Part shown: positions 8,120 through 59,000 of the stretch, in pieces
Layout of the letters: the number at the start of each line of letters is the position of its first letter
How positions within the stretch are numbered: position 1 is the stretch's first letter
Assembly (NCBI RefSeq): GCF_963921235.1
Contig: NC_086097.1
Coordinates: 152,522,001 to 152,586,000 of the forward strand
Direction: 5' to 3'
Length of the DNA: 64,000 nt
Origin: Mobula hypostoma
Taxonomy: Eukaryota
Program-made: the position numbers and the translations under genes
The notes under the pieces: model-generated
Told to the model about the DNA's origin: nothing
Databases searched by the model: none
The model's input: the letters and a program-made list of their open reading frames with translations, nothing else

Positions 8120-9490
8120 AAACGTCTATATAGATTTCTTACTCTAGTGGAATTATGTCTTTCCTGACAAAGAGGAACACTCTACTTCAGATGTGAGACT
8201 TATGGCTGTAAAAAAACTCAGGTTCCAGGGCCTCCTCCGTGCTGGTTGTTGAAGCTGACTCTGGGACCGCAGGAAGCAGTTCTGACGGCGATGGACACCT
8301 TTCTTCTCTAACAATTGACCATCCATTTCCAAGGATGGAGGGGTTCTGCTGTTAGCATCTTCTGGATGTGCTGCCATCCCAAACAGTGCATGGCAAGCTG
8401 CTCAATGTGTTGATCTATCATTGTGACCACGCCTAGATGTTCAGAATGCAGTAAGCTCTCAGCATAAATTGTACAACAGCTCTCAAACTCCACATAAGGC
8501 AACCCCCGTCAAGGGCAGGTTCATCCTGGCTCTGGCAAAAATGGGGGAACTGGAATTTCTGCTGCATATTCTAGCCATTTTGGGTTGCAATGTGGACTTG
8601 AGAATGTGTGGGGTCTTTTCTGGTTTCCCATTGGATCATCTCTGCCCTAATAGACTTTTGATTTGCATTAGGGAAAATACATCAAGGGAAGAGTCTGCTT
8701 TTGTAATTTTTTCGTGTATTTCATTTTCAAAGGGCAAATGGGACTTTTGCAAATCATCAGCATTTCCATGATTAGTTGTCCTTTTGAATTTGATCTTGTA
8801 CTTAAGTTCTCCACGAAAACGAGCCCATCTCTGCATTTATGCTTCTACTGTTAGTAGAACACCCTTCTGTGGGTTGAAAATGGACCAAAGAGGTGAATAA
8901 TCAGTAATGAGAGTAAACTCTCTCCCACACAGGTACTGGTTGAAACAACTTACATCCCAAACCAGACTCAAGGCCTCTCTGTCAATCAGTGTAACGTTTT
9001 TGTCCGCTGCAGTTAGGGAACATGATGTAAAGGATATGGAGCGCTCACTTCTATCACTCATACATGTGACATGACTGCACCTATACCTTAAGACAAGGTG
9101 TCACAGGTAAGCTTCACTGGACAATGTGGATTGTATTGTGCGAGTACAGTGAGAGATGTCACCAATTCCTTTGCCTTTTAGAACGACACCTCAATCTGCT
9201 TTGTCCATTGCCATTTCTTCCCGATTTGTTGTAATGAGTTTAAGTGGTGGAGCACAGTAGCCAGGTTTGGCAAGAGCCTATTATGGTAATGGACAAATCC
9301 TAAAAAGGACCACAACTGTGATATCCACTGCTGCTTGAATTGTTATCAACAGTGTGCAGATTAGTGCTGTTTTAGAAACTGCAAACTGAATTTTTATCTT
9401 TTTCTTCTCCCTGTACAGTCCATTTACTTTTGTCTGTCTGATATGCACTTTGTACGTGTTCTACTTCGTAGCTTTTTCTGCAAGTTTGAT
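8120..9490 (-). mobile_element. Gypsy LTR retrotransposon, decayed gag C-terminus and pol
   Basis: RNase H motifs ERSISFTSCSLTAADKN..DREALSLVW..GREFTLITDY (8837-9061) and MQRWA..YKIKFKRTTNHGNAD (8636-8836); zinc-knuckle remnant near 9430-9490. Confidence 0.85.
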
Positions 9491-9643
9491 ACCCATATAG
9501 GTGAAGTCACAGGAAGTATTGAGGAAGCAGCAAGGCTGCAGAAGGACATTGATCGATTAGGAGAATGGGCAAAGGAGTGTCAAAATACAGTGTTGGGAAG
9601 TGAATGGTCATGAACTTTAGCAGAAGGAATAAAACCATAGACT

Positions 9644-10340
9644 TGTAAGGGGGTTTCGACTTTTATGTTACTACGGAGGCTAATTAAAATGGCGTCTTTG
9701 TTATGTTAATGTGGGGAATGCGGCTTTGTTGTGTTAAACGCTGAGAAAGTTTGTGCTAGTAGCTTGTTTTGGTTTAGAGGGTGATAAGAGGACACTATTA
9801 ACTAATTGGGATAGTTGTTATGGTTTTGGTGTATTTGAAGATACTGTATGCGCGGGGTTTTGGGGCAGAAGGCGGGAGAGCGAGACAGAGGATAGACCAG
9901 GTGCTGTGAGTCCGCTAGTGGGGTCGGACCCCGAGCGGGACGTTTGGCGAGGAGACGGAGACGGACTCGTGTGGAGCGTCTGGTCGACCACCGTTGTTGG
10001 TCCCAGGCAGCCGGTCGAGGTGGTCCGAGGGGTCGCAGGGTGAAGAAGAAGGTCCTTGAGCTCCAACGGTTTTTGTGCATGAAGAGATTGAACTTTGATA
10101 AGTGTGGCGCCTTTTATTTTCCTTTTATATTTTATTCTCTCTTAATTATATAGTTCCAGTAATATTTATAAACTGTAAATCATTTAATTGCATCTGGTGT
10201 ATTGTCCGTTATTTGGGCGGGGTGGGGTACCTCACACAGCATCCACACAAACGAATTACCCAGTTTGGCGGGGCCGAGGCTGTTTCCCTAGACGACAGCG
10301 AGCCGAGCGACCCTGAGGGTGGCCGGGGGGGGGGGCTACA
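9644..10340 (+). repeat. 5' LTR (697 bp)
   Basis: tgtaagggggtttcgac...ggggctaca, a direct repeat of 13044-13736. Confidence 0.95.
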
Positions 10341-10341
10341 T

Positions 10342-10363
10342 TGTGTGGGCTTTTGTCTGGGAT
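10342..10363 (+). promoter_or_regulatory. degenerate primer-binding site (tRNA-Pro-like)
   Basis: tgtgtgggcttttgtctgggat immediately after the LTR resembles TGGGGGCTCGTCCGGGAT. Confidence 0.5.
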
Positions 10364-10559
10364 TGGATCTACTGGTATGCTGTGTGGGTGCCCTGTTTAA
10401 ATCTGTAATGTGTGTCTCTGTGGGTTATTTGCTGGTTATTGCTGTATGTGTGGTGGGTGAGGTCTTTGTTCGAGTTCAGACTTGCATTGACGAGTTGGAG
10501 GTGGAACTCGGGGCTATCCATGCGGTTGGGAGAGAGAGGAAAGAGTGGTCTGATTTGGA

Positions 10560-11049
10560 GGTAGGATCTGCGAATAAATGTTCTAGCTCTGGCAGGCTCC
10601 GCCTGGCACTGCGGATAGTGTCCACCCCAAGAGGGGCAGAGGCGTGCAAGATGTGGGCGGAGCGGATCTCGCAGTTGTTAGATGAGTGGCAGTGCTCGGT
10701 TGAGGGAGAGCGACAGGGATTGGTTGAAAGTTTGAGTAGGCAGGCTGGTGACGGTGTTAGAGCTGTTAGGTTCACTTACACCGTAGTGACAGCTGTCAGT
10801 TATTTGAAAGAAGGGGGAAAGTTTTCAGTCTGTCTTCTCTGGCTAGGAGGGGGGCTAAATTGCTTGCAGTGCCAGGGGGATCATTTCAGGGAATCAGCCC
10901 CTCCTTCAGTTGTTCAGCTGATCAGAGAGGTGTCGGGAAACTTAGTGGAGGCCCAGTGGGGGAACGGCTTGGGGTCTCTGGGGAAGCACATTCCCAGCAA
11001 TGTACCGATGAACTTCCGAAAGGAAAACACCCTATTCCTGAAGGCTTAG
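10560..11049 (+). pseudogene. PNMA-like Gypsy gag remnant
   Basis: [37 protein letters not shown] resembles the PNMA/Gypsy capsid motif GEE.YE.W.EQ..QM..EWQCS..EKR.R..ESL; zinc-knuckle remnant CLQCQGDHF. Confidence 0.75.
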
Positions 11050-11243
11050 AGGGACCACGCCCCAAGGTGTCGCTATGGATAGAGGGAAGCAATGCTAAAG
11101 CTATCCTCGACCCCGAGTCACAGATCAAGTTGTTGTACAGTTCGTTTTACAACCTGTGTCTGAAGCATTTATCCTTGACAACCGCAAGGGCACCGGAGAC
11201 TTTGGGTACTAGTGGCAGTAGTTATCCAGAAGACGATGATTAG
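11030..11243 (+). pseudogene. dead aspartic protease
   Basis: [36 protein letters not shown] aligns to ALLDTGSQV, with the catalytic DTG changed to DPE. Confidence 0.75.
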
Positions 11244-11479
11244 TTAATGACCCTGGAAGTCATGGAGGCATTGTCTGGGCACCCAGCGTGTCAAGTTGCT
11301 TCTGAAGACGTGTGAAGCAGCCTTGAGCCAGTACCAAATTTAAGCGAGACCCAGCGGTGGTACGGCTTGGGGAAAGTAGCTGAGGGTGAGACCCTCTTAG
11401 TAGCTGCTCCGAACTACCACGAGGGAGGGGAGTTGACCGCTGAAGACACCTCAGTGAGAGAGAGGTCGCCGCAACTGGA

Positions 11480-11740
11480 CCCTAGTGGCGTGGAAAATGA
11501 AGGCAGCGTTTGTATGGATTATGCGATGTGGTTTAATGTGCTGAATCTGAGGGGTGGATGATCCTGACGAGTGCGGCTGTTGAGCTGAAGATGGCAGTTA
11601 CTAGTTCCCTAGGATTCTTCCGATCCAAAAAGATGCCCAAGGGCATATCCGGAGCCCCTGCATCCTTCCCGTGGGGCACGAGGAAGACCATGGGCAAGTG
11701 AGGGTGTGTGGAGTTTTGGCGTATGTGGATGACCGCCTAG
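11480..11740 (+). pseudogene. fragmented Gypsy reverse transcriptase motifs
   Basis: VCMDY, WFNVLNLRGG, MPKGISGAPASF and VLAYVDD occur in the correct order with the intervening sequence deleted. Confidence 0.75.
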
Positions 11741-11894
11741 AGCTTGGATTCGCCTGGGGGACTATGAGGCGAGGCGAGTGGCTGAGCCCGGGCGACCGAA
11801 GTGAAGTGTCAAATGTGGAGAAGTTTTTGGCCAGAGGAGTTTGGTGCAATGTGAGAAAAATGACCTGACATACCAGTTGAACTGCCTGGTGTTG

Positions 11895-12542
11895 GGACAG
11901 ATGGTGGTGGACCGGGGGATGGAAACCCAGGTCGTCAATCTGAATGAGACACAGGGGAGAGAGGGGATTTGCACCACACTGTGGTCATGTACTGATGAAT
12001 TAATCCAGCGAGAAGAAACAATGACCCACCTTCGAAGGGATCAGCAGAAACTCAAGACGTCCATTCAGAACAGATTGGAAGACTTACAAGTTAGGGAAGA
12101 TTAAGGAAATGTTCTGACTAAGGTCAACATAAAACTGAGAGCCCAGGGAGGGGAGTTTGACTACACTCCCGAGGAGGTGAAGACATAGAGGACAGATCTC
12201 GGAGAAGGGAGGCGGACGCTTGAGAGGAACCTGAAGGTGACTATCGCGAGTTTAAATGAAGAGGAATAACTGAAAGTTGACCTGGAAGACGTCCTCAGGA
12301 AGAAACAACCGGAGGCTGAATATTCTTTAACTGCTGCTTTTCAGGTCAGGATGGAAGAAGCTGGTGGGGTAACTGCATCCCAGATTGAGATGGCCAGGAA
12401 CCCTGAGTCAGAACTGCGGAGGCTGTGGCGAGAGTTGAAGGAGTCCCCGAAGAAGCTGACGTCTCGGCTGCAGGAGGCTGAAGGGGTAGCCCCGGCTAAC
12501 TGTTTCAGTTTGGAGAAACTCAAACAGCAGCTACTGATCGAG
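11895..12542 (+). pseudogene. MYH16: captured sarcomeric myosin heavy-chain rod fragments, MYH16-like
   Basis: One frame with 3 stops: [107 protein letters not shown]. These match myosin II motifs LDDLQAEEDKVN.LTK, RLEEAGGATSAQIE and RKLAARLQEAE..SLEK.KQRL. The paralog assignment is from memory and less certain than the family. Confidence 0.85.
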
Positions 12543-13030
12543 GGAATGAGGAAGGATATGGGTTCGAAGGATGATGTGCTGCACATGTGGTACATGCTGC
12601 CTTTCGCTAACTTCCCCGTGATTGAGGAAGAGACCTTTGGCCCTTCTCCCACTGAGTCAGGTGTAGTGGGGAGGGCTAGCTGTGGGCAGTCTGAGTTACG
12701 GCAGGATCAGGAAGGAAAAGAAGCGGGGCCCCGGACATGAGACAGGGGGCTCCGAGCTGTAATGGTGGCCTGAATGAGAGAGGAGTTGGCAAGCGGGCCC
12801 GAGGTATCCCTAGTAGTGTCTGAGCCTTTTGGGTTTAGGTGAGGGGGTACGGAGGTCTCGGAGGGTTAAGAAGCTCCCAGATAGGTTGGCCTATGTAGCG
12901 CCCGTGGGACGGGAGTAAGGTCCACTGTTTGGGGAGCACTGTCACTGTGTGTATCTGTGTATGTGTGTGTTGTGTGTCTGCAGGACTGGTTGGCGAGTTA
13001 TTTAGAAGTCATGAGGATATGACTTTATTT

Positions 13031-13043
13031 GGTGGGGGGAGAG
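13031..13043 (+). promoter_or_regulatory. polypurine tract
   Basis: ggtggggggagag abuts the 3' LTR. Confidence 0.8.
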
Positions 13044-25242: not shown

Positions 25243-25280
25243 CAGTCCTGACAAAGGGTTCCGGCCCGAAATGTTGACTG
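25243..25280 (+). ncRNA. hammerhead motif with mutated core
   Basis: CAGUC-CUGACAA-AGGGUUCCGGCCC-GAAAUGUU-GACUG. Confidence 0.6.
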
Positions 25281-28058
25281 ATCATTTCCACGGATGCTGC
25301 CCGACCTGCTGAGTTCCTCCAGCATGTCGTGAGTGTTGCATTGACCCCAGCATCTGCAGAGTATTTTGTGTTTATGAGAGGACACAGCATCTTCACTGTA
25401 GTGTCCAGGTTTGCCTTGAGAGCTGCTCCAGGAATGTCAATGGATGAGCTGCTTGACCATTGTTTAGCATCTTTATTTTTTCTGATCTCCTCTCTGGTAG
25501 GCCTGTTGCAGTCTACAGGCAGTTCAGTGTTGGCTGGGGGGGTGGGGTGACAGGCAGGTTTAGAGGTGTGCGTCTGTTCAGCAGATCTTCAAGATGTTCA
25601 GCCCACCTGTTCAGCTGTTTCTCTATTCCCGCTAGGCATTTCCATCCTTTCCTTGACTGGCTTCTCAGGCTAACCATACTTTCCAGACTGTTTCTTGGTG
25701 GTGTTGTACAGCTTCCTCATGTTGCTATACATAATTGCTTGTTCCGCTTTCTCTGCCAGCCATTTATATAATGACACTTGTCTCCTTTAATGTTCCTCTT
25801 CACGGCCCTGTAAGCCTCTGCTTGCTCTCCCTGTATTTTCACCTTTCCTGTTCTAGTGCTGCTGGTATTCATGACTGCTTTCTTCTGCCTCCTCATTTTG
25901 ATCTTGCATAATGTTTCAGCTGAGATCCATTCTTCCTGCTGGTTCTTTTTGTCACCTAGTACTCTTGACATGTTGAGATGAATGTATCCTTAAATTTCTG
26001 TCATTCATTGCATAACTCCTCTAATTGTGCATTTCTTCTAGCACTTGGAACTTGTTGCAGAGGACCAATTTGATTGCTTCCTGGGACTGCCATGTCTCTC
26101 AAAAGGTTGATATTGAATCTCTGCCTCGATGCTGATTCCATCCAATTCTTCTTCAGTTTGCGTTTCAGCTTCGCGACCAAGACGTGGTGGTCAGATGCAA
26201 CATCTGTTCCTCTCCTCACTCTGACATCCGAGATGACAGAAGGTTGATCAGTCCTGTGGCTTCCATAGATATGCAGCAATTACCACATGCTTTCCTATTG
26301 TCTTCTAGGTGAAGACCCTTCCTCACCCAGGGATTAGGTCTGTGGAGCTTCTGTACCTCTGGGTTTTTTCGGGATGCGATTGCTAGCCCCATCCTAACCG
26401 TCCTCCTTTCACAGCCAGGAGTTGAGAATTGGAATGTGTTTGTGGAAGAAAATAAACTAGGCTTGTGCAGATTGGATGAGCCAAATGGCCAAATTATGCC
26501 CCTATGTCTTATGATCTTACGTTACTTCTATTTAAACATTTCATGGGTTAACAGTTAAGAATCATATTCTGGAAGAGTTAAAGAACTTTTATTTACAGAA
26601 ATAAACAAACACAACTTAAACCCGCCACATGTTGATACATACTGGCAAACCCTGCGCATGCTCAGTGCTGTCCAATCAGGAACTGACATGTCATCGCACG
26701 TGATATCACCTCACTTAAGTGGTGGAAGAGTCTCAAGGGAGAACTTTCTGAAAGAATGCCCTTGAATTCAAAGCACTTTGTGGGTTTATGCTCTTCAAGT
26801 ACAAAGATAAGAGAAGGTGGCTAAATACTAAGATTCTATGAAGCTAACTGTATACTTTGGGAGTAGATTCTAACTCACAAAACCATTAAATATCTTTGTC
26901 AATACAATGTAATTCACATATATAGTCAAAAAGCTTTTGAGGCAGAAACCCAGAATAAATCCGATTAATGTTTGATGTGCTAAATGACAAACTAACTATT
27001 CAGGAATATTCCATGATCTCATCCTGGGGATTTCAATGTAGACCAATTATACATCTCTATTGTCTTTATGTTTGGCCAGTACATACAAAACATATTTTTA
27101 AGGTGGCTGCTGCTGTGAGTACGTACCCAGCTCTCTGGAGAGGGCGGTGTTTATTCATTCAGCTGTCCTTTCTTTTACTTCAAAACTGATTATTCTGCAG
27201 GTTAAACACAGAATAAAGGATTGGTTTTCATTTGAATTAATAGCTACTATATCTTACATTTTATACTTTTCAGCTGTATGTACCTATTCTTAGTAATTGA
27301 CACTTTATCAAAAATCTCTATCAAGGTATAAAAGAATTGCCTTTTAAAATTTACGTTGACTCTCTTTACTGAATCCATTGTCCAGATGACTGCTAATTCT
27401 ATCCTAATTATTATTAACAGAATTGTAGCAGTGCTGAAAATGGCCACTCTGCCCATTGAAGACTTGCTGGTTTACTATTGCAATGGAGGGACTTTCCTGG
27501 TTATAAGGCTTAAGGCTATGCAGTTGAAAGTGACTAAAAGTGATTTTAAGCAATGCACATATAATGAGCAATGGGCACCTTTAGCAAGATGTTCAGCTTT
27601 GTTGGCAAGTTACGGAAAAGGTTGAGCCCAAAAAAGGCTATTCTCTGGCGCAGCAGACCAAGGAGCAGCTGATATAAAAACACAACTTACCACCTACATT
27701 GCTGGAAGCCCTTAAAAATCTCTTTAGATGAAGGCTGGTCTGACATCCCCCGAAGATCCATTTTCTTTGAAAACTTTCCAGCTTTACCTGATGGCTCTGC
27801 TTAGTTTGCTTGAGCTTGTGACCATGAAGTGTTTTTTTTCTGTTAAACATTAAGATATCAGCTTGGTTTCTGAAATACACTCTTCACTGAGCATGTTCAA
27901 ACTTTTCAAATTCTCAGTATCTTTCCTTCCTCAGAGAGATTCATTGTAGCCTGCAGCTAATTCATTCAAACGACAGACTGCTGTATATCCCTTTTCTTCA
28001 AGTGTTTGTTCACTGTCGACATCTCAAAAATCACCTACAATAGGGCACCCAGGAGAGT

Positions 28059-35450: not shown

Positions 35451-36858
35451 CTGTTGACATTTGCTAGAGTCTTTCATAAAGTAGAGTCATCTACCTTAAG
35501 TACCATGTTCCTTTTCCATCCTGACATCCCATTATTGCTTAATCATGAAGTCATTTTAAAATCTGTTTTAAATGCAATTAATGACCGAGTCTCTACAGTC
35601 ATATTACACTACTTTCTGAGTGAAAAGAAAAATTATCCTCTTCTAAATGTTTAATAGGCTTCATCTTACTCTGGAAAGCTTGCACTGAGCTCTAATCTCT
35701 TCAGTGAGTGGAAACATTTTCCTCATGTCTTATGTATTGAGTATTTTCAACTTTTCATGGGGATTACTTGTCATTGTTCTAAATTCTAGAAAATAGAAGC
35801 CTAGCCTCATGATACATTGTCATGCTATGAATCAGTCTATACTATGAGTGTATTTCCAACACGCCTTTTGCAAAGTGTGTGTTTTGGGGGGAAGGAGTAA
35901 AACTGTGCACTTTGCTGTGTATATCATCATCAAGATCTTACATAATCGAAATAAGATGTCTTTATTCCTGTACTCAAACCCTCTTGCAATAGTGGCCAGA
36001 ATACCTTTTGCCTTTCTAATTGCTTGTCCTACCAGGTATCAGATTCAGTTACTTGTGTACGTAGATACCCAAGTCCTTCTTTAAAATTTTAACCGTAGTG
36101 GATAATTTCATGGACTTGCTGTGTTTTTCCATCATATTTTATTTGGCATTGAAATTGAATCAGTTACCAATAAAAAAAAACATGACCTTACTCAATCAAA
36201 TTTGCAAACAGATGTCATCTCTCATTCTTGAATGTGATGTCAGACTATGTGGGACATTTGACTCAGAAGCAAATACATTTCCAAGGAGGAGAATGCGAAA
36301 CTGAACGTAGTGAACTAACAGGATAGAGAAAGTGAGAGAAAGGAGAGGCAGGAGACACAAGAGAGCGAAGAGAGAGAGGAGGGAGGAGAGAGGGAGAGAG
36401 GAACTGTGAGGGTAAGGGAGAGGGAGAGAGAGAGAGAAAGACCAAAACCAAAAGGAGGAGAACAAAATTTGTTTATGTTTTTTCATTAAGAATGGAAGAA
36501 CTGGAAGTAAGGCTACTATTTTATTATTCAGCAAATCACATTATTTGCATTAATGTTGTACCAAAATGGCTCTTGTCAAAGTCACAAATGACATCTTCTA
36601 TGATAAGAACAACCTATTGTTCCTCTCAACCACAGTCTTGGACTACAGTATTCTCTTCCAGTAACTTTTCATACTGGCCAAGCAGGTTACAACTGCACTT
36701 ACCTGGTTTCATTACTTTCTAATTAGTGTCCTTCAATGACTTTTTCTTGCCTAGTGTCACAAAAAACCATGGGTCAATTGTTTAAGAAAAATAACCAGAT
36801 AGCTTGAGTCATAGCCACCCTCAGACTAAACACAAAAGAAAACTAACCCCCAAAGCCT

Positions 36859-36969
36859 GTCTGTTTGTATCTTGTTTTACGGCGGTCAGCATCCAGCTTA
36901 ATGGTGCATTACCGCCACCCTCTGCTCCAGAATGTGCACTAGACATATATTCCAAATCCCTTCACCCAA

Positions 36970-37013
<44 letters not shown>

Positions 37014-37531
37014 CTACACTTTACCCTCCCATCTTTGACCCTCGTAGTACCCTATTCCTGTTTATCTGTCATATCCTATAAAAAACCCCTGTACCCCTTA
37101 AAAACACTAAAAATACCCGGACTTGTGCTCTCTCACCCATGACCAGCAACCCTTTTAATGTGAATTCCTGCACCCCCCAACTCCCTTAATTTAATTCTCA
37201 TCATCTCTCTGTATCCCATACTTCCTGCAACACAAAATCCACATGTTCTACTGACTTCTCTTCCTGACATTCCTCACACAATCCTGTCTGGTGTTTCCCT
37301 ATCATTTTCAATGTTTTGTTTAATGCACAATGCCCCAGCCTTAACCTAGTCCACACAATTTCCTCTCTTCTGTTTCCATTACCTACCCTAGTACCTGCAA
37401 TTCTCTTTTGTATTTGATATAAATGCCTCCCTTTCCCCTCCCTGTCCCATCTTTCTTGCCACATTCAGTTGTCTTTTTCCCAGATTACACACTTAACCTC
37501 TGCTTTACTAGTACTAATGTGCATTTCCACA
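36859..37531 (-). mobile_element. I/Nimb-clade LINE 3' end inserted in the 3' LTR
   Basis: WTRLRLGHCALNKTL..GLCEECQEEKSVEHV (C-terminal zinc knuckle); ~14-bp TSD taaccccaaagcct at 36844-36858 and 37532-37545. Confidence 0.85.
36971..37010. repeat. (CA)n microsatellite
   Basis: About 20 perfect CA units inside the LINE 3' UTR. Confidence 0.95.
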
Positions 37532-38198
37532 TAACCCCAAAGCCTTGATAAGCAGAGGCTTATAACTGCTAAGCCCCTCCCCCTAGACCAACCAAAAGCT
37601 AATTAACTCAATTATCCAATTAAAGATGGTATCCTCCACCATCAGCACACCCGTGCAGGTTGCTGCTGTCTCTATATGAGACAGCTCCATGCAGCAGCTC
37701 TGGGTCAGACCCAGTCACTATTACTGTAGGGGATGAGTGTTTTACCGAGTGCGCCATGTGCCATCCGTAGTCAGTGACGGGCCTCCGTCACATTACCACC
37801 CTCCTCTCCTTCAGCGGCAATGTTTGGCAGTCTTGACAGGAAGTCCGCTGTGATGTTCTCCTTGCCTGCTTTGTGCCGCACACAGAACCTGAAAGGTTGA
37901 AGTTCCAGGTACCACCTAGTCACCCTGGCATTCTGGTCTCTCATTGTCTGGATCCAGGTCAGGGCTCTGTGGTCCGTCTGAAGGTCAAACTACCCCCCAA
38001 GAAGGTAGTACTTGAGGCTGTCCAATGCCCACTTGATTGCCAGACACTCCTTCTCGATTGTGGAGTACTGGGTTTCACGGGGCAGAAGTTTCCTGCTGAG
38101 ATATAACACAGGACATTCCTCACCTGGCTCTCCTTGAGTCAGTACTGCCCCGATGCCTACACCTGAGGCATCCACCTGCACCAGGAAGCGGCATTGAA

Positions 38199-39413
38199 CA
38201 TAGAACATAGAATAGTACAGCACAGTACAGGCCCTTCGGCCCACAATGTTGTGCCGACCCTCAAACCCTGCCTCTCCTATAAGCCCCCACCTTAGATTCC
38301 TCCGTATACCTGTCTAGTAGTCTCTTAAACTTCACTAGTGTATCTGCCTCCACCACTGACTCAGGCAGTGCATTCCACACACCAACCACTCTCTGAGTAA
38401 AAAACCTTCCTCTAATATCCTCCTTGAACTTCCCACCCCTTACCTTAAAGCCATGTCCTCTTGTATTGAGCAGTGGTGCCCTGGGGAAGAGGCGCTGGCT
38501 ATCCACTCTATCTATTCCTCTTATTATCTTGTACACCTCTATCATGTCTCCTCTCATCCTCCTTCTCTCCAAAGAGTAAAGCCCTAGCTCCCTTAATCTC
38601 TGATCATAATGCATACTTTCTAAACCAGGCAGCATCCTGGTAAATCTCCTCTGTACCCTTTCCAATACTTCCACATCCTTCCTATAGAGAGGTGACCAGA
38701 ACTGGACACAATACTCCAGGTGTGGTCTAACCAGACTTTTATAGAGCTGCATCATTACCTCGCAACTTTTAAACTCTATCCCTCGACTTATGAAAGCTAA
38801 CACCCCATAACCTTTCTTAACTACCCTATCCACCTGTGGCAACTTTCAGGGATCTGTGGACATGTACCCAGAGATCCCTCTGCTCCTCCACACTACCAAG
38901 TATCCTGCCATTGACTTTGTACTCTGCCTTGGAGTTTGTCCTTCCAAAGTGTACCACCTCACACTTCTCCAGGTTGAACTCCATCTGCCAATTCTCAGCC
39001 CACTTCTGCATCCTATCAATGTCTCTCTGCAATCTTTGACAATCCTCTACACTATCTACAACACCACCAACCTTTGTGTCATCTGCAAACTTGCCAACCC
39101 ACCCTTCTACCCCCACATCCAGGTCATTAATAAAAATCACGAAAAGTAGAGGTCCCAGAACAGATCCTTGTGGGACACCACTAGTCACAATCCTCCAATC
39201 TGAATGTACTCCCTCCACCACTACCCTCTGCCTTCTGCAGGCAAGCCAATTCTGAATCCACCTGGCCAAACTTCCCTGGATCCCATGCTTTCTAACTTTC
39301 TGAATAAGCCTACCAAGTGGTACCTTGTCAAATGCCTTACTAAAATCCATATAGATCACGTCCACTGTACTACCCTCATCTATATGTCTGGTCACCTCCT
39401 CAAAGTCACCTCC
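38199..39413 (-). mobile_element. young CR1 LINE nested in Gmr1-like pol
   Basis: [45 protein letters not shown]; flanked by ttgaa (38194-38198, 39414-39418). Confidence 0.95.
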
Positions 39414-39723
39414 TTGAAAGTCAGGCCTCTGCAACACAGGGGAAGAGCATAATTCCTCCTTCAGGCCCTGGAAAGCACTTTCACACTCCTCACTCCATTC
39501 CACAGGATTACAGGCCAATTTGCAGGTGAGGTTGGTCAATGGGGCTGCCAGGGTTGAAAAGTGAGGTGATGGAAGGAGGGCTGCTTCTTTCCTCCCAGGC
39601 TTTCAAAAGGTTCACATGGTACATTTGCTTTTGTTTCCCCTTCTCTGGATGCAGGATCTCATATGTTGTAAGCCCCAGGGCTTTCCCGGTCAGCAGGGGA
39701 ATTAGTCGACAGGGCCACTCCTC

Positions 39724-40305
39724 CTAGGGCCACTGCCATATTCTTGCCATGCATTCAAAACGTAGAAGGTAATTTTCAATGTCCTCACCTTGTTGATACA
39801 CTAGTATCTTGGGATCCTTACGCTGGACTGCTGGGGAGTGAACAGAAGGATTACCCAGTCTGCCAGGGGAAGACACCAACGATTGCCCAATGTCGGGGGT
39901 GTCAGGTGGGCCTCCCCTTCTGGGCACTGGAGTTGAAAGTTCCAGTCTAAGGCTCCCACCTTCTGCTGTGGGGGACTGCCCTGCTGGGGATGGCTGTAGG
40001 ACAGGCTGCTGGGAGACCTCCAGTGAGATCCACAGGCCCCGGAGCCCTTCTTGAAGAATATCATCTCTCTTCTGCTGGGCGGCTAAAAAGTCCCTGAAGA
40101 GATTTACCACCTCTAGGGTTGAGGGACTCCCTTCCGGCGATGGCCCAGGTTGCAGCTGTCGGGTTTTGGACGTTGCCCCTTCTGCCTCTTCCTCTGATGT
40201 TGCTGCTGTCTCCCACTCATCCTCATTCTTCATCTGAAGTTGCTGGTTTTGAGACCGTAGCCCAGTTCGTTTCTTAAAAGCACGCTTAGTTTTGCGACTG
40301 GCCAT
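39724..40305 (-). pseudogene. gag N-terminus of the Gmr1-like element
   Basis: ATG overlapping the PBS (MASRKTKR...); a stop interrupts the conserved WQWP*EEWPCRLIPLLTGKA motif. Confidence 0.75.
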
Positions 40306-40321
40306 CCCACCACTGCCACCA
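40304..40321 (-). promoter_or_regulatory. tRNA-Leu primer-binding site
   Basis: TGGTGGCAGTGGTGGGAT, 2 nt from the 5' LTR, is complementary to the vertebrate tRNA-Leu 3' end ATCCCACC(A/G)CTGCCA-CCA. Confidence 0.85.
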
Positions 40322-41097
40322 TATGTCACAAAAAACCGTGGGTCAATTGTTTAAGAAAAATAACCAGATGGCTTGAGTGGCAAAAGTAGGTTGAGGTGCT
40401 TTTACCTCAAAACAAGACAAAAACTGGAAAAAGAAACAGTATATATATAGCCACCCTCAGACTAAACACAAAAGAAAACTAACCCCAAAGCCTTGGTAAC
40501 CTGAGGCTTACAACTGCTAAGCCCCTCCCCCTAGACCAACCAAAAGCTAATTAACTCAATTATCCAATTAAAGATGGTATCCTCCACCATCAGCACACCT
40601 GTGCAGGTTGCTGCTGTCTCTATATGAGACACTCCATGCAGCAGCTCTGGGTCAGACCCAGTCACTATTACTGCTGGGGATGAGTGTTTTACCGAGTGCG
40701 CCATGTGTCGTCTGTAGTTAGTGATGGGCCTTTGTCACACCTAGCTTTCTCTTTTTTTGGGACTACTATTATGTCAGCTGAAAATAAAAAGAAACAATCT
40801 GTGTATGCCAGATATCTGAAATAAAAACAGGCAATGCTGGAAATATTCTAGAGATCAGGTAGCATCTCAGAAAGAGAAATTACCTGCTGTCCACGTGGGA
40901 TCAGTCCGTACCCTTGCTGCTCTTCCAGCCTTGATTCCTAGTTCTCAACTTCATGATGCACCTTGACAATGCCAACTAAAACCATAGCAGAGTTCCACAA
41001 GCAGGCCATGAACATCTTAGATCCTTTCCCACTCATCTCTTTAGCCTCCTTATTCAATCCTCAGTGAAAATCCAACATCCATTCATCTCTTGAACTC

Positions 41098-56052: not shown

Positions 56053-59000
56053 ACACACAATTGAATCAACCTTAGCTTGATTATATTCAATAACGTTCTG
56101 TATAATTATTAAATCTTCCCTTATCCGTAACAGCAAAAAAGCTCAAAATATTAAATGATATCGCATTTAGAACATAGAAAATTGGAAATGCTGTGACTTT
56201 CAATAAATAGGCAAAAATTGTGGCATTCTTCACTGCAATCAGTAAAATGATATATGGCCATACTTTTTTCTTCTTTTTGTTTTTTTAGTTGATCAAGGAT
56301 TCTAGGTCCAGCACACCAGAATAACATGTCTCTCTGAACAGGTAGCATAACTTAATGCTGGGTAAGATCTTGGGACATTCCCAAGATGGTGCTGGCAGCA
56401 TTCAATAGTGTTTTGCGGGCAGCTCACAAATCTACTAGATACTCTACAATATATATTTATTCTGAACTACGATCACTGCAATCTGCAGTCTGTCATTTCC
56501 TTTAAGAAATGTACTTTCGAAATGACTAAATTAACTAGCGATTGTAGGATCTCCTGAAAGACGGTGAACTTCAATCTCAAGAATGCAGAAATGACTGGGG
56601 AGGCCATCACTGGAGGCAGACACTCTGTCGAGGGCCAAGAGAGCAAAATGAACCCATGCTCATGTCAATTAAAATGTCAAGCTAGATTAAAAGCATTGAG
56701 ACTGAGAGCGGAAAGCGGGTGTTTCAGTGTCATCTGCCTACGTTTGAACATCTCTCTCACTCTCTCTCTCATTGTCTTCTTGCTGCTGCCATCAGGTGAG
56801 AGATGCAGGAGTCTTGGGTCTCACACCTCCTGCTTCGGGAGCAGTTATTGCCCTGCAGCCATGGGGCTCCTCGAGAGGCTTCACTTGCCTCAGTGCTGAA
56901 CTCACTCCACAGTTGTGGGGTCACTTTCCGCACCACTCTGCATAATCTGTTCACTTTGTTTTTACTATTTGCATGAGAAGAATAATATCTTAATGCTTTG
57001 ATTATTTGTCTGTCCTAATATGCTACGGTGAGCCTATTGCAATATTCTTTTCACCTTACCCTCGAAGGAAATATGCAATTAAGCTTCAGCTGAGATCTGT
57101 TTAGTTAGATCTTTATCTCATCAATATTTTGTTCATATTTTGTCAAGCCCAGAGTTGGAGAGATTTGAGACACAAACATTTACAGATGCTTTGGCCAAAC
57201 AGACCATAAAGTCAAACGCACTGCAGCCTGACCCGCAACCTGCCTTTCCAGAGGTTAGTCGAGATTTATTTATAGAAATAAATAGCTCGAAGCCATTGAT
57301 TGCATTTCAAATTCTAAACAGTAAACAAAGAAACACTTAAAAATAAATATAATAATCAGATTCCTATCTGTTTTACTAAGTGTTAACATAACTAGGCTGA
57401 AGCATCTTTTACCTCACTCTGGGGTTGGAGACACAGTGGACCTATACTTAAGTCCGAATAATGCAAAATGTCTCAGCTCAGATGTCTAGTGCTAGGTTCT
57501 AATGTCTAGGAGTTCATTGTATTAATAGATGTTACACTTCCTCTCAGTGTGGTTATGGCTGGGGTTCCAATGTCATCAAATTACCTAACCACTGATTACG
57601 TCTGATTGATTTGCCCCTAGCTTGTAGACATGTGTTTAGTCAAGCCATCAAGCTTCCTTGTATGTGTTACATACTGGAGGTAATCAAAGCATTAGGATAT
57701 TACTCTTCTCGTGCAAAAAGTTTTTTAAAAAATGAACAAATTATGCAGAGTGATACAAAAAGTCAGTCTACAGTTGTGGAGTAAGTTCAGAACTGAGGCA
57801 AGTGAAGAGGGCAATCTGATAAAATAAAAAATGCACATTTTGTTCTTCACTCCTGTATCTCTCATATGTGTGTTTTTTAGTACAACAAAATTAACAATAT
57901 CTTTCTTAAAGTTTTGTACAAGGATTAAGTATTTTTTGTCAGTTTCTGAAGCATATGAGTTTGTTCTCCTGTGTTGACACACCCACATACTTTGCTCATC
58001 CCAGCATCATATAAATTCACCTCTTCTCTTCCACCTTTTCTTTCCATCAATGCTATCTCAATTCTTATTCAGCTCTGACTTGCTTCTCTGATTCTCTTAA
58101 GCTTCTTCCAATAAGATCATTATCTTCTCTTCATCCAGTACGTTGAAAATGTTAGACCTAATTTCTGTTCTCAGAATTGTGCTGCCCTCCCTCATCTCTT
58201 CAACCATTCCATTCAAATCTTATTGCAGACATTGTAGGCAGTGTTATTGATAGTTCAATAATCATCTCCCCAAAATTATCCCATCACACCGTCTCTCCAA
58301 AAGTATTTAATCCATCATATGAAGAAATAACTCCTTTTAAGCCCTGCTGAATGAAAAAAACATTTATTGTGAATACCATTAATTAAAAAGAATGTTTTAA
58401 ATATAATCTCGACAGAACTTCAGAATGAAATTCAAATTAAGGTTAACAAATTTTAAACCGGCTCATTAAAAAAGTGTCCTTTAGCAATGTCTGTAATTTG
58501 ATTTTTTTGGGTTAATTTGATAAATTCAACAAAGGTATGGTAGAAACCTTATTGTTTAACTACACTGAGACTGCCTGTTGCTAATTACATTATTTCACTC
58601 TGTCAGGGGTGGCCTAGTTCCATATTTTAATGTTCACAAACAGTGAAGCATAAGGGAAGAACACAAACTATTGACAGGCATCTAATATCCTCAATTTTAA
58701 ATCAACATTTTATTTACATAATAATGTTCACCACATGAAAGAAAAAAAACAGTTGCTTCTGACTGTATCTCTTCCCTACTTCCTTGAAGTTATTGCATCA
58801 CTCTATGGAGATTGTTACAAGCCAGATGGATGAAGAATGCTGAATTTTCAGGTGGCTTGTCTTTTCAGACCATAACATTAACATTGCTGGACAGTAACAT
58901 GTTTGATCCCTGAACTTTTTAATATCTAATTTTACGTATTCATTCACAAAACAGGAACATTACCAGCAAGACTGACACTTATTGTCCATCCCCAAACTGT

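Follow-up and report, generated by a model that had tools for sequence, protein, structure and literature searches.

Why should a piece of myosin rod, lying among the remnants of a retrotransposon, have lost several stretches of its coding sequence and still read in one frame? The question arises in a stretch of 64,000 nucleotides of the Mobula hypostoma genome (NC_086097.1, positions 152,522,001 to 152,586,000), hereafter the window. A first-pass annotation of the window had described 11841-12740 as a single frame broken by point stops at 12102, 12186 and 12267, and the sequence bears this out. The anatomy of the element, its single frame, the lesions private to the window copy, the one origin of the cargo, the many different in-frame deletions and the near-neutral drift are established here. 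In this family a long frame survived many deletions as its amino acids drifted, and it is likely that being translated, and not the protein made, helps the copying of the element.

By its structure, the interval 9644-13736 holds a non-autonomous Ty3/Gypsy LTR element of rays, now decayed and probably of the PNMA-gag lineage, with a myosin cargo (Table 1). The intact relative P0015 (1522 aa, with the order RT-RNase H-integrase) served as the map for the pol remnants. The protease, RT, RNase H and tail remnants of the window copy are colinear with P0015, and the integrase is absent. The gag remnant is matched by Pfam PF14893 (E 5e-5; 23.1 bits, below the curated cut-off of 25) and by the gag of the Takifugu element P0014 (27/92 identical; E 4e-5). 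In the window copy the pol-like frame lies one base behind the gag frame, and the fold downstream of the slippery heptamer is no better than that of shuffled sequences (z -0.29). The RNase H identity is clearer in relatives: P0141 matches P0015 699-731 at 15/33 positions, and P0164 matches 713-746 at 9/12 and 11/22. A Hypanus ORF matches the RT of Ty3 (E 4e-10). The tail and the last myosin block together match Hypanus P0011 641-726 (52/86 identical), and a further tail match lies at 12929-13045 (52% of 40, E 0.001). The long frame ends about 300 bases from the 3' LTR.

Table 1. Features of the element and its target site, in window coordinates.
Feature	Coordinates	Strand	Remarks
Left target-site duplication	9640..9643		4 bp, identical to 13737-13740
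5' LTR, TG...CA	9644..10340	+	against 3' LTR: 655/697 columns match, 38 mismatches, 4 gap columns
PNMA-like gag remnant, separate frame	10522..11049	+	open in window copy until stop at 11047
Slippery heptamer, gag frame	10935..10941	+	-1 shift would lead into pol-myosin frame
Protease and spacer remnant, in-frame deletions	10962..11440	+	50/106 identical to P0013 3-108, further blocks after gaps
Reverse-transcriptase remnant, in-frame deleted	11441..11820	+	frame breaks near 11559, 11691, 11755 in window copy
RNase H remnant, cargo frame	11835..11918	+	13/26 identical to P0015 705-730
First myosin block, weakly aligned	11919..11975	+	ends at 40-codon gap; P0163 retains the 40 residues
Main rod block, gap-free, stops 12102/12186/12267	11976..12314	+	47/111 identical to P0051 968-1078; MYH7 977-1087
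Short myosin block between 9- and 42-codon gaps	12315..12338	+	P0085 1091-1097
Myosin block before 208-codon gap	12339..12446	+	21/39 identical to P0051 1135-1173
Last myosin block, 3-codon gap	12447..12536	+	8/12 to P0051 1382-1393, 9/18 to 1397-1414
Post-integrase pol tail, in frame	12537..12740	+	15/43 identical to P0015 1333-1375 (matched tail region P0015 1327-1375)
Remaining pol tail beyond long frame, two other frames	12841..13043	+	12841-12903 13/21 to P0015 1454-1474
Polypurine tract	~13031-13043	+	directly before 3' LTR
3' LTR	13044..13736	+	pairs with 5' LTR

The element split a LINE remnant (window 9500-9643 and 13737-13800), which we take to be of the CR1 type and whose frame resumes at 13737. 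Beside the element lies an older Gypsy RT-RNase H remnant on the minus strand (8744-9324; E 3e-11 to P0015). A second deleted LTR element occupies about 36760-40740 on the minus strand; it has a repeat pair (37532-37683 and 40480-40631, 97%), an RNase H match to P0015 at 38187-37831 (E 6e-19), LINE-like sequence inside (about 38200-39400), and no myosin match in that interval. Two sets of long inverted repeats (24696-25346 and 56879-57807; 82-90% complementary, a few hundred bases apart) are possibly DNA-transposon remnants.

The whole of 11841-12740 had been read as myosin. This holds for about 11919-12536, but 11835-11918 belongs to RNase H and 12537-12740 to the pol tail. Placing 11835-11890 on myosin 879-893, where a shared five-residue word leads and where aligners place it likewise, was rejected because P0015, P0164 and the Mobula models show RNase H. 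The cargo aligns to the rod of sarcomeric myosin in several stretches, at MYH7 977-1097 (E 4e-7), near 1146-1184 and near 1390-1422. It occupies the place between P0015 731 and about 1327, the end of RNase H and all of the integrase being replaced, and it is in frame with the pol remnant at both ends. A Pfam search of the decayed cargo found no myosin domain, and a PDB search with the first 52 codons returned 0 matches. Of the roughly four frame-keeping gaps described earlier, the last put at about 200 codons, the kept frame and the large gap (208 codons) stand. The count changes to gaps of 40, 9, 42, 208 and 3 codons, measured against shark and chimaera MYH16-like proteins and a longer sister subfamily, and the first junction moves two codons earlier, to 11975/11976, where the contigs also diverge from the window sequence. 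P0157, P0159 and P0161 read through without the 9-codon gap, and near-identical repeats flank the 208-codon gap. Two of the gap 3' ends lie within about one codon of an exon junction (975 and 1390, the latter presumably a junction), which is indistinguishable from chance. Exon skipping as a general source of the gaps was rejected because their 5' ends lie in the middle of exons and the missing pieces are still present in longer sister subfamilies. The idea that the gaps preserve the coiled-coil register was also rejected, only 1/9 gap lengths being a multiple of 7 (skip residues left aside).

The cargo had also been taken to be intronless and hence to come from a spliced mRNA, and this origin is supported by the comparisons. 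The main block runs for 111 codons without a gap, and therefore has no intron. The ab initio myosin models P0172, P0175 and P0179 break at MYH7-equivalent positions 893, 975, 1082 and 1112, and the longer sisters P0163, P0157 and P0161 run through 975 and 1082 unbroken. The exon junction after QQVDD is our assumption; no MYH7 junction positions were found in the literature searched. The proposed donor, host MYH16, fits in part. Most of the 120 matches listed are myosin-16 by name, the MYH6/7-type scoring lower, but the cargo and the annotated ray MYH16 proteins do not fall together. In the tree, a single clade on long branches (99/94) unites six cargo rows; P0171 is its sister (100/99), and the myosin-16-like proteins of Mobula, Hypanus and Leucoraja stand apart, a placement that the long branches make unsure. 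Identity is 31/48 to P0171 versus 21-23/45 to the annotated ray myosin-16-like proteins. A single origin of the cargo is evident from these comparisons. Because the cargo groups with P0171 and apart from the annotated ray proteins, the donor was probably another MYH16-like paralogue. P0171 itself is a rod fragment much nearer the cargo than annotated ray MYH16, and it may mark an unannotated MYH16-like paralogue.

The window copy carries six stops and three frame breaks between 10938 and 12737, and 1.8 stops are expected from its LTR age (99th percentile 6). Contigs aligned to the element numbered 7008, 7700 and 634 in the three runs that contain it (organisms A, B and C). Among the 40 of 226 rows listed, which do not include 12186, the summed depth of these contigs has a different letter in 99-100% at 12102 and in about 100% at 12267. 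In the same rows, most of the contig depth also lacks the stops at 12738/12740 and those near 11242 and 11802. A fourth run, X21 (raw reads), held no element sequence; 24 runs were listed for the element search, none of them RNA. Extra letters at the breaks 11559/11691/11755 make up 71/57/45% of the depth in X12; they make up 0.5/2/88% in X1 and 0.2/8/28% in X2, two runs whose short contigs are often clipped there and for which the data do not show the RT frame to be whole in the majority of copies.

The gene models agree that the cargo stops vanish across the family, a check that the first-pass annotation had proposed. P0021, P0141 and P0156 read through 12102, 12186 and 12267, and P0140 passes the first cargo stop and then has a frameshift of its own. 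The Mobula birostris models P0021 (432 aa), P0140 (313) and P0141 (450) are 89-93% alike and start at window 11247, and all three (3/3 related Mobula models) read through the three RT breaks. An earlier contrast between a steady cargo frame and a frame-changing RT is wrong for the family, because these sister models read through stops and RT frameshifts alike. The alignments show that the stops and frameshifts of the window copy are private, and that in the family the pol-like region and the cargo make one frame. The excess of lesions may mean that broken templates are still copyable; CpG decay, LTR conversion or a broken template could produce it.

In our reading of the alignments, about 14 junctions from protease to tail are all in frame (seven in pol, two capture points and five in myosin), of which nine remain if the count is restricted to blocks that score alone. 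Past the end of the ORF both strong junctions (2/2) change frame (14:0 vs 0:2; Fisher p 0.008). Could such a record have arisen with no selection, codon-periodic microhomology or cryptic splicing giving in-frame deletions in a young, fast-copied master that had no time to gather stops? The predicted in-frame share is indeed raised in the cargo, at 0.36-0.41 (0.40) for microhomology and 0.40-0.48 for cryptic GT-AG pairs, both nulls being computed on the decayed window copy and thus perhaps low; the repeats around the 208-codon gap point the same way. Rare contig deletions are multiples of three in 5/6 events in the cargo versus 2/7 outside (p 0.10), among 15 of 48 joints listed, with two row pairs merged as one event each and a row straddling the cargo end counted as outside. 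This pattern may reflect a mutation bias above the null, or the rows may be old selected subfamilies. Yet this leaves unexplained the in-frame pol gaps, with a null share of 0.34-0.37, and the lack of stops in two branches that have accumulated about 0.25 substitutions per site. For the junctions as a whole, 0.41^14 = 4e-6 and 0.48^9 is about 1e-3. Microhomology as a full account of the gaps, which the annotation had named as a refutation of its reading, is too weak alone and silent on the missing stops; it may contribute. We consider an origin free of selection very improbable. Two further deletions were seen. Another copy (X1) has a 219-base in-frame deletion (window 12232-12452) with GT..AG ends, as if spliced element RNA had been copied back, and P0012 has a 68-codon gap between similar words.

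Stop-free frames are found in relatives that have drifted far. The Hypanus sabinus sister branch has 10 clustered models, 3/10 of which are 729-codon ORFs that read gag-PR-RT-RNase H-myosin-tail. In this type the deletions are different (4 and 304 rod codons), and the 3' capture point is that of the window copy. In the 5/10 Hypanus models tested, 61-66 of the 150-151 pol sites invariant in P0015 vs P0014 have changed (40-44%), and the changed sites score a mean BLOSUM of -0.77 to -0.92, compared with -0.73 +/- 0.2 in neutral simulation and +0.19 in the intact pair. Drift of this depth predicts 16-18 stops, and 0/200 simulations stayed stop-free. For the 450-codon Mobula ORF, stop-free outcomes were 0/500 at d 0.25, 1/500 at 0.15-0.2 and 5/500 at 0.1. 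The protein records, among them the RefSeq ORFs XP_059820679.1, XP_059823747.1, XP_072134064.1 and XP_072103657.1, are gene models selected for open frames and possibly spliced, a bias of which the window and contig data are free. The aligned Hypanus PR/RT blocks are gap-free against P0015, and therefore splicing cannot have concealed scattered stops there. Among the 26 proteins that a profile-free search returned are 14 further family members. These show at least six deletion patterns, each in one predicted frame in a set biased to open frames. Family models lie on several chromosomes of two species. Related DNA was sought in JGI metagenome and IMG/VR contigs and none was found, the 4 pattern matches being unrelated; an ESM Atlas search gave RT clusters only, below 0.9.

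Some of these models have further peculiarities. Compared with window 10579-10960, the ORFs of Hypanus P0002, P0006 and P0011 begin in the gag frame and cross into that of pol before the slippery site is reached; a gag-pol join fixed in this way would hardly be tolerable for an autonomous element. The RefSeq records 'TMEM192 isoform X1' and 'GSTT2 isoform X1' consist entirely of element ORF. Several models (among P0002, P0141, P0009, P0012, P0156 and P0159) leave the element or end at one spot in the tail, window ~12585-12595, which suggests a splice donor into host sequence.

The protein encoded by these frames is for the most part not conserved. Hypanus has lost the catalytic Asp of the protease, and the Mobula models the first Asp of RT. 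The rod has changed at 38-41% of its invariant sites, with scores of -0.23 to +0.16 versus -0.27 to -0.41 (SD 0.23-0.38) under neutrality and +0.29 to +0.65 in real myosins. Prolines number 5-7 over 156-174 aligned residues of the Mobula type, against 0 in five myosins and none in the Hypanus type. Three Mobula RT blocks lie 1-1.6 SD above neutral, on the more conservative side. Against P0171, an imperfect donor proxy, all 10 cargo copies lie above the neutral mean, two of them clearly (P0157 +0.59, P0159 +0.86). Weak constraint at the protein level may exist.

These figures bear on the earlier suggestion that a short coiled-coil fusion protein was once selected, or that heptad-codon microhomologies favoured in-frame deletions. 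Selection of the frame stands, extended to the entire pol-myosin-tail frame; the near-neutral drift, the prolines, the differing rod pieces and the gap lengths (1/9 a multiple of 7) speak against a selected coiled-coil protein. A version in which the myosin coiled coil has its own job, such as oligomerising or localising the fusion, under protein-level selection, would explain why every subfamily seen keeps some rod, why those reaching the last block (about 1390-1413) keep it, and why substitutions are slightly conservative. We nevertheless judge it improbable, as the lost block differs from one subfamily to another (most of the main block in P0158 and P0163, the middle block in P0162, P0164 and the Hypanus 729-aa type) and dead pol pieces keep frame equally. 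A bolder form, in which the fusion coiled coil would bind in cis and recruit helper particles, and would be the reason that the cargo lineage radiated across stingrays and devil rays, seems to us just as doubtful. That selection acted on the frame rather than on the protein is what we hold with good confidence.

How might translation as such help an element of this kind? The cargo would have been captured by template switching in the particle, and the element would be copied by the enzymes of an intact relative. Lacking working enzymes, it must win packaging by a helper. Ribosomes would enter the long frame by -1 frameshifting in the Mobula type or through the fixed gag-pol join in the Hypanus type. 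An open frame reaching near the 3' LTR would then aid its own RNA in cis, with selection also in cis, as translation would shield the RNA from nonsense-mediated decay before packaging. The myosin piece would be stop-free filler and the fusion product a by-product. Such a route has precedents in viruses and reporters. Excerpts of the RSV source report that stops in gag reduce RNA to ~10%, also in virions (PMC9143442), and excerpts of another that reporters are protected by readthrough as low as 1.5% and by -1 frameshift elements (PMC6277124). The slippery site kept in the window copy and the fixed Hypanus join both fit decay escape. Against it, the Mobula-type gag ends at 11047, ~2 kb before the 3' LTR, and therefore only rare frameshifting ribosomes would traverse the long frame. 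This gag stop, the ordinary fold and the lesion excess count against a neat version of decay escape, which as the likeliest specific cause we put forward tentatively, at somewhat under even confidence.

The main rival is that the long ORF was kept since a nascent or finished Gag-remnant fusion acts in cis and ties its own RNA to helper particles, with most of the chain serving as spacer. It rests on the same frame evidence as decay escape, and the N-terminal part of gag is retained in both branches. A precedent exists in the mouse IAP 1-delta-1 element, where, in the portions of the sources available, a 1.9-kb deletion gives a gag-pol fusion that works in cis (PMC6466679, PMC7411935). Yet the ray gag is deleted and has drifted (27/92 to P0014), the Hypanus ORF exits the gag frame after ~90-120 residues and so is without the C-terminal part of gag, and a tether has no obvious need of a frame that reaches the far tail. 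We regard this rival as unlikely. The complete account that we prefer, a helper-dependent ray Gypsy element with an MYH16-like rod in the place of its integrase, whose frame would be selected since translation shields its RNA from nonsense-mediated decay before packaging, we regard as evenly balanced between right and wrong.

If right, the family is a natural, many-copy vertebrate record of selection for translatability without selection on the protein. Genomes could then test whether ribosomes have to stay on the RNA of helper-dependent LTR elements, and whether a filter (sense, in frame, stop-free) determines the captured host pieces that spread. A long open frame in a repeat cannot be taken as evidence that its protein has a function, and this myosin-carrying element accounts for several RefSeq ray models, named as TMEM192 or GSTT2 isoforms or uncharacterized. 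Gene capture by LTR elements and the need for translation in cis are already known; what the present analysis adds is evidence that the frame and not the protein persists. No paper on a myosin-carrying ray family was found in the literature searched, most subscription papers being beyond reach.

Defective interfering RNAs of the kind studied by van der Most et al. 1995 reportedly need an open frame. As far as partial accounts of these and of RSV RNA decay go (PMC9143442), they resemble the ray element in being helper-dependent RNA whose success hangs on translation and not on the encoded sequence. They differ in that the viruses offer experimental proof, whereas here the case is made from sequence and concerns a germ-line retrotransposon. 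Maize Bs1 is, in the excerpts of its source, an LTR element with three transduced donors joined in a hybrid ORF that is transcribed, translated and possibly functional (PMC13317346). It is like the ray element in carrying transduced host gene pieces in a hybrid ORF, and unlike it in that the latter has one donor, is known from sequence alone and bears signs against protein function. In the LTR-mediated retrocopies of animals, as partly summarised from Tan et al. 2016 (PMC5131818), a piece of host mRNA replaces an internal part of the ORF and is recopied non-autonomously. The ray cargo likewise replaces an internal ORF part between LTRs, lacks introns and went through further rounds of copying; those retrocopies are recent and few-copy, whereas the ray cargo is old, occurs in several ray lineages and subfamilies, and is fused in frame at both ends. 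A further likeness is to mouse IAP 1-delta-1 (Saito et al. 2008), whose translation product is reported, in excerpts of PMC6466679 and PMC7411935, to act in cis. There an internal deletion made a non-autonomous LTR element with one fused gag-pol ORF that was very successful, and in the ray element too deletions fuse internal genes into one open frame. By the same excerpts, the IAP belongs to the endogenous retroviruses, has undergone one recent deletion and carries no host cargo, whereas the ray element is of the Gypsy lineage and combines a piece of host myosin with deep amino-acid drift and at least a dozen in-frame deletions, one after another.
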